NCBI GenBank assembly: GCA_023205875.1
Contig: CP060772.1
Location: forward strand, 372,001 to 429,915
DNA from: Chloropicon primus
Lineage: Eukaryota
Direction of reading: 5' to 3'
Length of the DNA stretch: 57,915 nt
Numbering within the stretch: the stretch's first letter is position 1; each line of letters begins with the position of its first letter. Under the pieces are notes generated by a model. That model searched no databases, had not been told where the DNA came from, and saw only the letters and a list, made by a program, of their open reading frames with translations. Both the position numbers and the translations under genes were made by a program. Positions 4,396-45,322 of the stretch are shown here, one piece after another.

Positions 4396-5026
4396 CCGCT
4401 CTACGGAACGCTCGCGAGATGATCTTTCCAACGATGCTTTTCTCGAACGCCACACCTTCCGATAAAGTGTTCTCCTTCGTAAGAGAGAAGCTTGTTCGAT
4501 GATGACCACGTCCTCGCTCTTCCTTATCCAAGTCTCTACTGCCTCGCTCAGGAATCCAAACGGAGCAAGCGAGGGCTCTACGGAACGCTCGCGAGATAAG
4601 CTTTCCGATGAGCCTACCCTCGCCCCCTTCACCTTCCGCTAACCCTCTCTCCTCCCTTGCTCAACGTCGCCGACTGCCAACGGCAGCGAAGAAGGAAACT
4701 ATAAAGTGACAAGCACGTGGTGAGGAGGCTTTTTTAGCCACAAGCTTGAGGTGCAGCAATTGCGGGACTTTTGATGGCGACGGAGGGTAGATGGGACGAA
4801 AGGGGAGTGACTGAGGGAGCGAATCGTCTCGCTAGCTTTCCAATGACCTCTTGATGGAAAGATTTGGTTCCATTTTGAGGAATTGAGCTCAAGAATGGTT
4901 TGAGAATCCAAGTTTTGAACCTCGACTGTCGTGACTTTGGCGTACGCTGGTGGACGGGATAAAGCGAGGGAAGGCGAGGAGAGCATGAAGGGCGAAGGCT
5001 TAACTCGAGATCTTTTGATTGATGTG
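4396..5026. promoter_or_regulatory. four-site palindrome array in a divergent promoter
   Basis: Right arms start at 4424, 4601, 4836 and 5012 (spacings 177/235/176); function inferred. Confidence 0.6.
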
Positions 5027-5089
5027 TCGCATGAAGGCATGGGTTCCATTTGGAGTACCTAACTCTGGAGACGAAGGCATTTCGTGGTG

Positions 5090-6067
5090 ATGAAGCTGGA
5101 AGGAGGAAGGAGGAAGGTGAGGGGTGCCAAGGGGCCTCCGTCGCTTCAGGGGAGGGGAAGGCGCCGTGAAGCGGTTCGTGTGAGATCGTCCTCGTCATTC
5201 GAGTCAGGGGAAGGAGTTTCGGGAAGACACACGCTTCCCAGCGGCCTGGAGCTCGAGACAAAGTACGCCAAGGGCGTCGCAGGAGACTTGCCTCCCTCGA
5301 GAGGGAAGGCGAGTTTGATCCATCTTCATGGGAGCTACCACGCGTGCTGGTGCTGGGACAACTTCTTTGCGTACTTCGCGTCAAGGGGCTACGATTGCTA
5401 CGCTTGCAGCTTCCTTGGACAAGGCAGTAGCTCGATACCCGACGGCGAGGTTGCGGGCACGGTGGCGAGTCACGCTCTGGACGTACGGCACTGGATTTCG
5501 ACCATAGAGGGTCCGAAGGTCCTTGTGGCGCACAGCTTTGGTGGTCTGATCGCACAGAAGCTCGTGGCGACATCTCCACTGGAAGACATCGCCGCGGTTG
5601 CCCTGCTGTGCTCCGTACCTCCTAGCGGGAACGGAGCGATGAGCTTGAGATTTCTCAGAAGGCAACCCGTCTCGGCCCTGCAGCTGGCTTACGCGTTCGT
5701 CACCAGGAATTTCGAGACGAACGCAGACGTTTGCAGGCAGATCTTCTTCTCGGAGAGCTTGCCGCGGTCCGAATTGCTGCTGTATCAAAGCCGGATGAGG
5801 GAATCGTGCAACCTGCCCCTCCTCGATGTCCGTGCCGTTTCGGAGGAGCTCCCCGTGGTCCAAAAGTCCTCCAGGGAGTTCGAAGCTTTCGTTTGCGGCA
5901 CTGCGGCAGACAAAGTGGTGGACCTGGACGGGGTGCGGGAAACCGCAGAAACGTTTGGGGTGGAGCCCGTCGTGTTCAAGTCCATAGCGCACGACGTGAT
6001 GCTCGACGCGGGCTGGGAGGAAGTCGCCGAATCCATCTTGGCGTTCCTGGAAGGCATTCCCACGTAA
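5090..6067 (+). CDS. alpha/beta-hydrolase fold protein
   Basis: HGSYHACWCW oxyanion region, nucleophile elbow AHSFGG, acid in ADKVVD, His in AHDVMLD. Confidence 0.85.
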   Translation: MKLEGGRRKVRGAKGPPSLQGRGRRREAVRVRSSSSFESGEGVSGRHTLPSGLELETKYAKGVAGDLPPSRGKASLIHLHGSYHACWCWDNFFAYFASRGYDCYACSFLGQGSSSIPDGEVAGTVASHALDVRHWISTIEGPKVLVAHSFGGLIAQKLVATSPLEDIAAVALLCSVPPSGNGAMSLRFLRRQPVSALQLAYAFVTRNFETNADVCRQIFFSESLPRSELLLYQSRMRESCNLPLLDVRAVSEELPVVQKSSREFEAFVCGTAADKVVDLDGVRETAETFGVEPVVFKSIAHDVMLDAGWEEVAESILAFLEGIPT

Positions 6068-6656
6068 TTCTCCTTTGTTGAGCTTCAAGTGTCGCGCCTA
6101 CGAGTCCACCCCGGCACCATTGTCCCCGCCAAACCCATCCAACCCGATCGTGGCCCTCCCTCCCTCCCTCCACCCTCATTCACCCTCATCGACCCTCCGC
6201 CAGAGCAGCTCTCCCCGTCCAAATCCCAACCAAACCCAGCAAGCCGCACACCATTGGAAAGCCCGCGAGTCCCTCTTCAAGCTGATGCGCTTCTCTTCGC
6301 CATCGGAACCCTCTCCCGTCGCGTGCTCCCTTCCAAACACCGCCCTCTCCTCCTCCTCCTCCAATCAAAGAATTCCTTGAAAAAAAAAATTATATTAAAA
6401 ACCATTTGACCAGAATCTCCTGGAGGTTTATCGAAAAAGTCATTGGACACGAAAACGGGAGGAAACCAAGTAAGTTCGGGACAATGTAGGGCTCCAGGAG
6501 TCTGTCAGTGACGAAAGATACCATCTTCGATGAAACCTTCATGCGATGCTCTTTCCAAAGATACCTCACTTGAAGGAAATGCTTCACTATTGAAGTTTTG
6601 ACACCCATTGAACTGACCATGGAGCATTCACTTCCATTGTTCTTCCTCTGTGCAGG

Positions 6657-43153: not shown

Positions 43154-43345
43154 TGCCGGTCCGTTCGGCGAGTTATCCTTTTGTTTGGTGTATATATATA
43201 TATTATGAAAAAACATCTCAAAAGCAGGATGACCTGAACCCACCCCTCTAAAAAGAAAAAAAAAATAGGAAAGGAACGCCTGCCGCCAGCCACTCTTAAC
43301 TGGTACATGGCACTTTGCCTCGCGCCCCATTGTATATCTCGTCTC

Positions 43346-44533
43346 TCAAAACTTGGCAATGATTGCCTTCAAAATCTCGTAACTGGTCAAAACTATTGCG
43401 CACGAGGGCGCGGCCCTCGCCGCCCTCGCCGCTGCCCCGTCGAAGAGCCTGCCGGGGCCCTCCTGCGTTGCTATCTTGCGTATCATTCCACCCACCTGCC
43501 TCACCCCGCTGTCCTTTCTTAGGAACCCCACCGCCGGCCTTTGCCCCTTGGCCGTTGCCGCCCGGTCGTCCTGCAGGAGGTCCACCTGGATCCTCGTCTT
43601 CACGACGTCCAGGGGGGTCGTGACCGACGCGGCCACGACGCCCCCAACCGTCCCGGACAAAAGGTTGACGTACGCGACTTGCCTGAGCACGCCTTGGGGT
43701 CCCGCGTCCTCAGTGGCGTGCTTGGCATCCGCGACCGGCGAGGACAGCCTCCTCCTTACGCTCTCCGTCACCACCCAGTAGATTCCCGAAAACGGGACGT
43801 CCCGGGCAAGCGTCGCGACGGTGCCCTTCCACAGCTGGCTGAACCCCCGCAGGCTCCCCAGCGACGACGGGGAGGGCGACGACGAGGGCATCTTCGTCGC
43901 GAAAGCCTGGACCCTCGTCCTGTACCTCTCCAGCGGGCTGGTGATGAGGACCGCGAGTCCCCTCGCAGTGGTTCCCGCAACCAGGGCGGGCATGAGCGAG
44001 TCCTCCCCCGTCGCCCCCTTCGTGAGGCGCGCCTTGAGGGCCTCGTAAGTCGGCATGTAGATGCCAACCTGGGGTATCGCCATGGCGAGCGCGGCGGGCG
44101 TCCCCCTCCACAGGACCTTGAATCCCTCCTTCCGAACGATCTTCCTCGCCGCGTCCAGAGTCCCGCTAAAGATGCCGCACTCCTTGGCCCCCGTCGTCGC
44201 GCAGAGGGCTCCTCCCCGCGTCACCCCGACGTTGATCGAGATCGGGTTCGCGTTCGCGTCCAGCTTCACCCCCGGCAGGCAACCGCAAGACAGGTAAGTG
44301 AGCTGACTGCTCTGCAAACCTAGCCTCGGCAAGACCGTCTTCATGCTCTGGGACGAGCTCAGCACTGCCGCGTTCATGTTCAGCTGCGCCGCTTGCGTCT
44401 GCACCCTCGTCTTCACCACGTCCATGGGGTTCGTTATCAACGCGCTCGCTACCGCTGCACCAGCCGCCGCTACAACTCTGTCCAACCCAGCCACACCTCC
44501 GCCCCTTCTGTTCTCTCCCACGCCGGACACCAT
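43346..44533 (-). CDS. mitochondrial carrier, SLC25A39/40 (MTM1-like)
   Basis: PMDVVKTRVQ, PLERYRTRVQ and PLDVVKTRIQ carrier signatures; Cys-containing first loop; RDVPFSGIYW, APSCAIVLTSYE. Confidence 0.9.
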   Translation of the reverse strand: MVSGVGENRRGGGVAGLDRVVAAAGAAVASALITNPMDVVKTRVQTQAAQLNMNAAVLSSSQSMKTVLPRLGLQSSQLTYLSCGCLPGVKLDANANPISINVGVTRGGALCATTGAKECGIFSGTLDAARKIVRKEGFKVLWRGTPAALAMAIPQVGIYMPTYEALKARLTKGATGEDSLMPALVAGTTARGLAVLITSPLERYRTRVQAFATKMPSSSPSPSSLGSLRGFSQLWKGTVATLARDVPFSGIYWVVTESVRRRLSSPVADAKHATEDAGPQGVLRQVAYVNLLSGTVGGVVAASVTTPLDVVKTRIQVDLLQDDRAATAKGQRPAVGFLRKDSGVRQVGGMIRKIATQEGPGRLFDGAAARAARAAPSCAIVLTSYEILKAIIAKF

Positions 44534-44666
44534 CCTCTCTCTCTCTCTCCTCCTCCACTCACTGCATCCCCTTCCTCTCCTCTGCCCCTCTCCTCCTCAG
44601 CCTTCACCTTCTTCGCTCCTCAGAACGACCTCGCTCGCCGATCCCGAACAAGAAAAACACGTGCGA

Positions 44667-45322
44667 CACACCAATCGAAAGCCCGCGAGGTGACGCACCC
44701 TTTGTCGTTACCCTCCACCCCCTTCCCCTCCGTCCCTTTCCCTCGTCTCGCGTCAAAGTCCTGGCTTTGGACTCTTTCCGTGGCGTCTTCCTCACAAAAT
44801 CCTTCGCCAACCCAACAAGATGGCCACGAAAACTTTCGATCGAGGTATCGTTGGAAAGATCGAGACGAGACGCTTCCGATGATCCAACCCTCTCTCTCTC
44901 TCCCTCGTCCGCCTTCCCCTCCAAAGAGCTCCGAACGTCCAAAGTCTCCGGCTCCTCTCCTCTCTCTCTTGTGACGTCGCCTTCGCGCGAGAATCTGTCC
45001 AGGGGGCGCTGCCAAACGAGAGACGACCAGGGCGACGGACGAAAGCGACAGCAGAGGGAGGAGGAGAGCGACGTAGGAGGAGAGGAAGGGATCATCGGAA
45101 AGAGCGTCTCGCGAGCTTTCCAACGATACCTTAGTTGCTTCGTTTGGCGTCCGGACGAAAGAAGGAGACGCCAAAGTGTGAAAGATCTTGGTCAGCGAGA
45201 GGAGGAGAGACCGACGGAGGAGAGGGACAAAAGCGGCAACAGAGGGTGGAGGAGGTCGAAACGCAAGACGAGAGTGGAATCATCGATCGGAAAGAGTGTC
45301 TCACGATCTTTCGAAAGATAGG
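44667..45322. promoter_or_regulatory. four-site palindrome array in a divergent promoter
   Basis: Right-arm positions 44695, 44872, 45116 and 45308 (177/244/192). Confidence 0.6.
45051..45318. repeat. inverted copy of the 35066-35328 intergenic repeat
   Basis: Reverse-complement match visible directly. Confidence 0.92.

Follow-up and report, generated by a model that had tools for sequence, protein, structure and literature searches.

A motif that recurs at close to nucleosome-repeat distances ahead of genes at a chromosome end of Chloropicon primus raises the question of whether promoter nucleosomes are positioned there by the DNA itself. Chloropicon is a tiny marine green alga with a small, nearly intron-free genome in which UTRs are unannotated. 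The window that we analysed, a subtelomeric stretch of 57,915 nucleotides, had been described in a first-pass annotation as carrying palindromes in phased four-site arrays of about 177, 235 and 177 bp within divergent promoters, one site to a nucleosome. Our analysis bore out the spacings in that description, and neither the palindromy nor the strict four-site layout. The motif is directional, ∼50 bp long with the core GAAAG-N13-CTTTCCAA, and lies ahead of 19 of the 25 genes tallied in the window, the scan returning no site for the remaining six. The 19-mer has ten matches in the window at two or fewer mismatches against 0.01 expected, and 35 sites reach a score of at least 10 where 20 Markov resamples averaged 0.9, using a matrix trained on the window's own sites. 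Motif and spacing together are a real observation, far above chance, made on about 30 sites from one subtelomeric window. Ten or more of 15 arm pairs are complementary in just 5 of 40 sites, that at 17301 being the sole near-perfect palindrome (14 of 15 pairs). A conserved hairpin was rejected (folding z-scores drop below −2 at 5 of 40 sites, with a median of −0.18), as was a structured RNA (no Rfam matches). The strong arm of the motif faces away from the central gap, its orientation is constant relative to gene starts and no site was found between convergent gene ends in the window; sites without a gene ahead also exist.

In an unbiased scan of the window, the distance to the next site was 177 bp six times, and also 176, 171, 186, 192 and 159 bp, while back-to-back pairs stood 225–244 or 274–276 bp apart. 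The array at 4379..5043, with centres 4417(−), 4594(−), 4829(+) and 5005(+), reproduced the earlier 177/235/176, and a G-box, a TATA-like word and a T6 tract lie close to its gap middle. At 21095..21941, centres 21330(−), 21501(−), 21726(+) and 21903(+) again gave 171/225/177, with a weak third minus-strand site (21133) 197 bp further out, and at 44650..45339 (44688(−), 44865(−), 45109(+), 45301(+)) we recovered 177/244/192. Two other reported arrays held in part. At 17086..17752 the steps of 177/227 stood (17124(−), 17301(−), 17528(+)) and the fourth site, 17714(+) at ∼186 bp, is weak: with a matrix built from inner sites only, the best offset was 187, and its score of −3.2 fell above the 95th but below the 99th percentile of 158 coding controls. 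At 35046..35545 the steps of 186/237 stood (35084(−), 35270(−), 35507(+)), and the same matrix did not recover a fourth site reported at 35684. Only three of the five four-site arrays are therefore complete.

Nor was a dependence on divergent genes supported; four back-to-back pairs have no divergent neighbour: 2518(−)/2792(+) (2480..2830; 274 bp), with a gene ahead of the minus-strand site only; 6268(−)/6544(+) (6230..6582; 276 bp), with a poly(A) tract inside the gap; 24715/24947; and 29054/29288. The first two had escaped the first-pass annotation, as had the single sites and a plus-strand tandem array at 14281..15006, in which 4.1 copies of a 177-bp unit (97% matches) carry one site each (14420, 14597, 14774, 14951) and stop just before a histidine-phosphatase-family ORF (15011). 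The central-type gaps of 232 and 234 bp that it did list were found again, the one at 24677..25202 (24715(−), 24947(+), 25106(+); 232/159), where the plus-strand sites lie within a 159-bp tandem duplication and face a gene end, and the other at 29016..29370 (29054(−)/29288(+)), whose plus-strand module is paralogous to 24947/25106 and, measured from the site centre, ends at about −90/+85. Its isolated 177-bp pair is also present (31584..31811; 31596 and 31773, both +), with partial homology to 21726/21903; no opposite-strand site was found for it. Single sites are centred on 26944(−) (26906..26956), upstream of a HARE-HTH ORF, on 41240(+) (41228..41278), on 47686(+) (47674..47724), without an identified gene ahead, and, weakly, on 50444(−) (50406..50456), 55 bp upstream of a DEAD-box ORF. 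Of 24 inner sites, 13 have no second site.

The recurrence of 177 bp while the DNA between sites differs, as first claimed, withstood alignment: no more than 3 of the 55 pairs of spacers could be aligned (z>4), and common descent from one repeat therefore does not explain the spacing. Five of the eight non-alignable spacer lineages are 176–177 bp long. The modules do not trace to a single unit alignable throughout; what is clear is their local duplication and exchange. DNA flanking the motifs is often common to several sites (75–92% identity across 48–268 bp), as in 35067–35328, which is 92.5% identical to 45051–45318; shared segments stop at differing offsets, spacer length differs by 6 bp within a 92.5%-identical pair, and many other genomic contigs match window modules. 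Homogeneous head-to-tail repeats occur only at 14281–15006 (4.1 copies) and 24883–25202 (two copies), and with arrays at just two loci a homogeneous nucleosome-length satellite was discarded as a candidate. Among published heterozygous indels, genome-wide, 25 of 55 fall at 162–193 bp (median 180), the bins on either side holding 7 and 8 (p=1.5e-4). Promoters likely gain and lose DNA in nucleosome-sized units.

The flanks of the sites carry a helical period. With the core excluded, the WW-SS period was 10.4 bp in both flanks (33 sites, p=0.0015), and for 22 paralogue-pruned sites a period of 10.3 bp was reached by none of 2,000 permutations. This wave of 10.3–10.4 bp spans about −90 to +165 of inner sites, is gone at −125..−94, the gap middle, and has no phase beyond about +350; for outer sites taken alone the flank period was not significant (p=0.05, n=11). 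Its maxima (about −69, −59, −48, −36, +26, +34, +46, +55 and +66) match the minor-groove-inward positions, known from nucleosome structures, of a nucleosome centred on the motif. After high-pass and linear detrending, the A/T content of downstream ORFs also oscillates in phase with the sites, peaking at +10..+25 of the motif-equivalent position, with a best period of 173–181 bp (p 0.0003–0.026 by range): 173 bp across +230..+900 (16 ORFs, p=0.0003), and weaker across +230..+1500 (p=0.026). Anchoring on ORF starts abolishes the A/T wave (p=0.66) and the unanchored spectrum of ORFs has only a broad hump near 150–165 bp; an ApT wave shows in the ORF-start control too (p=0.011). The WW/SS period, the A/T wave and the indel peak are independent of the spacing itself and support one site per nucleosome repeat, the part of the earlier interpretation that survives its palindromy, its divergent genes and its proposed linker CG methylation. 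The last, a Mamiellales-type CG-linker reading, was rejected, since CpG in the gene bodies of 19 genes showed no periodicity at the nucleosome repeat or in phase with the sites (p 0.25–0.9). CpG o/e is 0.86 in coding DNA, GATC and CATG show no phasing, and at least one 'DNA (cytosine-5)-methyltransferase' with Mamiellales homologues is present, a possible DNMT5 of the Mamiellales system.

We consider it an even call, on these sequence patterns, that a motif-bearing module of ∼177 bp positions one nucleosome beside a narrow open gap and has its motif close to the dyad. Each site would be the core of such a module. With one nucleosome per module and the motif at its dyad, back-to-back inner sites would therefore hold the +1 and −1 nucleosomes around an open gap of ∼80–130 bp, within which transcription likely starts. 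In nine gaps, words chosen post hoc stand no more than 35 bp from the midpoint (G-box three of three, TATA-like two of two, A/T6 tracts three of three). Transcript contigs, assembled from runs presumed to be RNA in which spliced joints were seen, and read only where they give cover, run 56–98 nt beyond three inner sites into the gap; a spliced contig extends to 21557 in the 21095..21941 array, and others to 29113 and 29152 in the 29016..29370 pair. We infer histone positioning, its register and selection on unit length, and likewise that whole modules turn over through tandem duplication, deletion and ectopic conversion. Some protein may, in addition, read the almost invariant bases of the core.

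Where the dyad falls is contested by a serious rival, which we nevertheless hold to be rather unlikely: modules and repeat length would stay as they are, but the motif would serve as the ∼30-bp linker and mark the border of the open region, a sequence-specific protein or linker histone probably binding it and setting the phase, with dyads between sites at about +93 to +103. A nucleosome template scores 6.4–6.6 with its dyad between sites (+83..+103), slightly above the motif (−32..−1; 5.2–5.9), and 7.3–7.4 at +93/+103 in seven pairs spaced 176–177 bp. Over the core (−32..+30) no helical signal is seen (+0.03/0.04); the signal runs unbroken from +30 to +166, including +74..+104 (+0.10±0.03), which is linker if the dyad lies on the motif. 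In length the conserved core corresponds to roughly one linker, its near-2-bit positions suggest a protein reader more readily than bending, and A/T-rich linkers are the textbook pattern in yeast. A motif in the linker leaves unexplained, however, the strong helical signal at −94..−32 of inner and single sites, unless a sliding nucleosome occupies the gap; nor would it lead one to expect factor words and poly(A) solely at the gap middle, and in Chlamydomonas A/T peaks mark nucleosome centres (PMC12146615). The A/T-rich zone, rather than centring on the motif, leans to about −20..+90, and a G+C peak stands on the gap side only (−60..−30), with none at ±37; the register is ambiguous.

It is improbable, in our view, that the sites are repeat or MITE remnants spread into open promoters, with remodelers placing the nucleosomes and the waves and indel sizes being passive mutational footprints around an unselected motif. 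Modules are indeed common to several loci and to many other genomic contigs, the same 19-mer occurs in non-coding repeats of other eukaryotes, and C. elegans has MITE-derived promoters with a 10-bp TT bias (10.1101/2022.01.21.477252). However, terminal inverted repeats do not exceed chance (best 15-nt match 5–9 in 14 segments, null mode 8), target duplications are inconsistent and common ends lacking, and MITE identity was rejected on these grounds and for want of whole-length alignment; spacers are non-alignable yet core and 177-bp length persist, and the constant orientation and empty convergent ends fit a spreading repeat poorly. That the motif acts within the RNA, or is read by the transcription machinery as a core-promoter element downstream of the start, its spacing a mere local-duplication size, would suit gene-oriented sites inside 5′ leaders at roughly similar distances from contig ends, but it is very improbable given the want of a conserved hairpin or Rfam match and the sites without a gene ahead, and neither the helical phasing nor the ORF A/T wave is predicted by it.

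Among the non-coding repeats of other eukaryotes that bear the 19-mer, one family has a TTAA-CCC end 122–129 bp upstream at 12 of the 17 loci examined; the downstream motif columns are not significant per family, and nine non-coding families outscore 13 in-ORF matches on columns outside the pattern at only p 0.01–0.02, with no helical phase (p 0.27–0.74), so that an extended motif in these repeats stands as a lead. Viral contigs gave no matches, their 61 loci with the bare dyad pattern lacking the extended motif; 66 metagenome loci had no site arrays like the window's, and 596 Gb of prokaryote genomes gave 14 matches, about the chance number. Tentatively, and at somewhat less than even confidence, a modular 177-bp positioning unit that bears the motif may make up the majority of Chloropicon promoters, placed back to back around the start site and gained, lost and exchanged whole; its core, reused in unrelated animal and plant repeats, would be a eukaryote-wide high-affinity sequence for the nucleosome or a nucleosome reader.

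How does the favoured dyad-centred module compare with known systems? In the yeast barrier model, general regulatory factors (Reb1, Abf1, Rap1) act with remodelers, and their motif stands once, inside the open region; a narrow open region between phased −1/+1 nucleosomes is common to both, whereas the Chloropicon motif lies beyond the gap and recurs there with the nucleosome period. That algal promoters have A/T phasing encoded in their sequence is already published: consecutive A/T peaks (CAPs; Mondo et al. 2025, PMC12146615) are nucleosome-sized A/T waves at gene starts, strongest in green algae, which mark nucleosome centres in Chlamydomonas and fungi and are tied to them in vitro and in vivo. 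C. primus appears in Data S1 of that paper with a CDS-start score of 0.047 and no UTR scores; its main text contains neither 'palindrom' nor 'Chloropicon'. The Chloropicon signal shares with CAPs a nucleosome-sized A/T wave from the gene start, and it shows the 10–11-bp WW/SS periodicity of common phase expected of sequence-encoded positioning. CAPs, however, are a composition signal of ∼150 bp obtained by smoothing, and here we see a base-specific directional motif, a sharp 177, a 10.3-bp phase and module turnover. Ostreococcus and Micromonas, with phasing by linker CG methylation (Huff and Zilberman 2014, as relayed in passages of PMC12633428 and PMC12695648), share, so far as those passages go, a compact prasinophyte genome, gene-body nucleosomes in regular phase and an imprint of them in the sequence, whereas Chloropicon has no phased CpG and its signal begins at a promoter motif. 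The C. elegans MITEs CERP2 and CELE2 supply HIM-17-bound motif pairs, 10–30 bp apart, to about a third of germline promoters (Carelli et al., 10.1101/2022.01.21.477252), likewise a repeated motif in many promoters with a 10-bp periodicity (of TT) linked to nucleosome positioning; the Chloropicon sites, by contrast, have no element ends, stand one per nucleosome repeat and serve about three quarters of window genes. Nucleosome-length satellites that phase nucleosomes, such as rice CentO (as outlined in part of the review PMC8122249), resemble the modules in unit length, dyad symmetry and tandem amplification (14281–15006), but CentO is there a homogeneous centromeric array, and the modules are dispersed, one to four copies at active gene starts with divergent spacers. 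The specific motif-bearing nucleosome module was not found in the literature searched.

Whether sequence, or remodelers and factors, fix promoter nucleosomes in vivo is a long-running dispute, which a base-specific motif standing once per nucleosome at most gene starts would make directly testable. Natural variants would number in the thousands, indels of whole units segregate, and dyad position and repeat length are sharply predicted. The motif would help to locate start sites where UTRs are unannotated, and the module would supply a natural positioning sequence for structural work, being, if the proposal is true, the natural counterpart of synthetic strong positioning sequences.

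Telomere repeats of the TTTTAGG type close the window, and the proteins of its compact, mostly intronless genes group with named proteins of Chloropicon primus and C. roscoffensis; we therefore take it to be a C. primus chromosome end. A matrix scan gave 35 matches at a score of at least 10 against 0.9 in resampled sequence, the matrix having been grown from the sites of the first-pass annotation and so trained on the same window, while a fixed 19-mer matched 10 times where 0.01 were expected. The sites had been described as palindromes. Their consensus, GAAAG-N13-CTTTC, has imperfect dyad symmetry. 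One of its two arms alone stays constant, and just 5 of 40 sites have at least 10 of 15 complementary arm pairs. Preceded by a purine-rich tract, the oriented motif spans about −12 to +38 from the site centre (positive into the gene) and comprises TCTC-x-CGA, CTTTCCAA-x-GAT-xx-C, TCGCTTG and GTTTGG. A site is directed into the gene at 19 of the 25 gene starts in our own gene list, with none at the other six, and comparison of matrix sites with this list placed no site between convergent gene ends in the window. At one locus, a single RNA contig (14977–16985) covers a histidine-phosphatase ORF (+) and a spliced UbiA-family gene (−), whose 3′ ends therefore likely overlap.

Spacing was surveyed with a matrix built from inner sites alone, the next site outward being sought within +90 to +290. 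A clear next site was found for 11 of 24 inner sites, at 177 bp (six times) or 176 bp and otherwise at 171, 186, 192 and 159 bp; nine back-to-back pairs, formed by 18 of the 24, are 225, 227, 232, 234, 235, 237, 244, 274 and 276 bp apart. Four of the nine pairs have neighbouring genes that are non-divergent, and of five proposed four-site arrays the fourth site is weak at 17.7 kb and not recovered at 35.7 kb with this matrix. All window statistics rest on ~30–40 sites. A tandem duplication at 50839–51123, in a 5′ region, carries degenerate half-sites (50851, 50989) in units of 130–138 bp, below the usual length.

Contigs of spliced-joint runs, whose ends do not equal start sites, extend into the central gap by 59 and 98 nt past site 29054, 56 nt past 21501 and 98 nt past 24715, another ending 5 nt past 24715; the sites are therefore located in 5′ leaders. 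G-box, TATA-like and A/T-tract words, picked post hoc, lie within 35 bp of gap midpoints.

Descent of the 177-bp spacing from one repeat unit aligning along its whole length, raised earlier as the case against a chromatin code, is not what we found: only 3 of 55 pairs of the ~110-bp spacers are alignable. Window modules also lack terminal inverted repeats and target duplications, and their ends do not coincide, all of which argues against copies of one element. The non-alignable spacers define eight lineages, five of them at 176–177 bp (probability about 2e-4 to 2e-3 even for lengths drawn from a 51-bp range). Within a single promoter, inner and outer sites share 75–89% identity over 58–167 bp; 35067–35328 and 45051–45318 are 92.5% identical, yet their spacing differs by 6 bp; and DNA-run contigs from other loci match motif-flanking stretches and then diverge. 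Since spacers rarely align, flanks are common and element ends are lacking, the modules appear to be a mosaic family whose members have been spread through duplication and exchange, their length apparently kept or regenerated despite spacer drift. Among 73 heterozygous indels of at least 100 bp across chromosomes (Supplementary Data 8, Lemieux et al. 2019, PMC6731263), called in the sequenced strain, possibly not that of the window, 25 of the 55 of 100–300 bp measure 162–193 bp (neighbouring 32-bp bins, 7 and 8; p=1.5e-4; median 180), and longer ones fall at 336–386, 559 and 665 bp. An 8-base half-site, scored by eye, occurs in 12 of these 25 against 3 of the 30 others; because random intergenic DNA would often hold a site as well, it is the size peak that counts. 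Two head-to-head BRCT-domain genes flanking the 21.1–21.9 kb array share an inverted 538-bp segment (18668–19205/22720–23257, 97%), a recent duplication or conversion.

The indel size peak, the contig ends and the gap words count, together with two compositional waves, as nucleosome signals that do not depend on the spacing. With the core removed, WW minus SS (A/T versus G/C dinucleotides) is most strongly periodic at 10.4 bp over both flanks (p=0.0015, 33 sites), and at 10.3 bp in 22 pruned sites (0 of 2000 permutations as strong); outer sites alone give p=0.05. For inner sites the signal occupies about −94 to −32 and +30 to +166, and is absent at −125 to −94 and over the core. Within single ORFs, an A/T wave runs in phase with the upstream site, with period 173 over +230 to +900 (p=0.0003, 16 ORFs) and 181 over +230 to +1500 (p=0.026, 19 ORFs). 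When ORF starts served as the anchor, the A/T wave was lost (p=0.66) but an ApT wave was still seen (p=0.011), and the same ORF test yielded no site-phased CpG wave. Inside the HARE-HTH ORF (25669–26469), a repeat of 267 bp (89 codons), equal to about 1.5 nucleosome repeats, is present in 2.8 copies.

The helical maxima fit a nucleosome dyad on the motif axis and also one at +93 to +103, because 103 bp is ten turns. We give an even chance to the motif lying at the dyad, which would account for the upstream half-wave, for a gap that is narrow and bears factor words, and for promoters with a single site. It would also agree with the A/T-rich nucleosome centres of Chlamydomonas and fungi described by Mondo et al. 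2025 (PMC12146615). A motif in the linker, with the dyad at +93 to +103, earns a slightly better nucleosome template score; we consider it a serious rival, about half as likely as the dyad placement.

In prokaryote genomes the strict 19-mer is no more frequent than chance predicts. In metagenomes, 66 loci reduce to about 13 in-ORF matches and nine non-coding families. One family of 30 loci (L018:4859–4877 and 29 related) is a dispersed repeat in animal DNA, near a rhodopsin-family receptor; of 17 loci checked, 12 have TTAA-CCC 122–129 bp upstream of the 19-mer, which hints at the end of a piggyBac-type MITE. Another adjoins a PHD-finger gene. Four non-coding loci (L001:4075, L063:4960, L040:56–452, L065:802) carry extra degenerate half-sites, inverted at 209 or 155 bp or direct at 372–379 or 122–130 bp. 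The non-coding families match unsearched motif columns weakly (p 0.01–0.02) and show no helical phase; kinship with the window motif is a lead only. Within the window, minisatellite arrays of 76-bp and 41-bp units (39558–41034, 53598–54128) lack the motif, and a nuclear ORF (3100–4323) encodes a NUMOD3 motif (E 3e-9), which is characteristically found in homing endonucleases.

The strings palindrom, nucleosom and promoter do not occur in the passages searched of two Chloropicon genome papers (PMC6731263, PMC12301720). The literature searched, mainly open-access, yielded no published description of the motif or of such a specific modular form of sequence-encoded promoter phasing. The feature noted at the outset is real, and its proposed reading as nucleosome architecture is supported, at the level of sequence, by several independent tests. 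The motif would work in the manner of known sequence-encoded promoter phasing, but in a much more specific and modular form.
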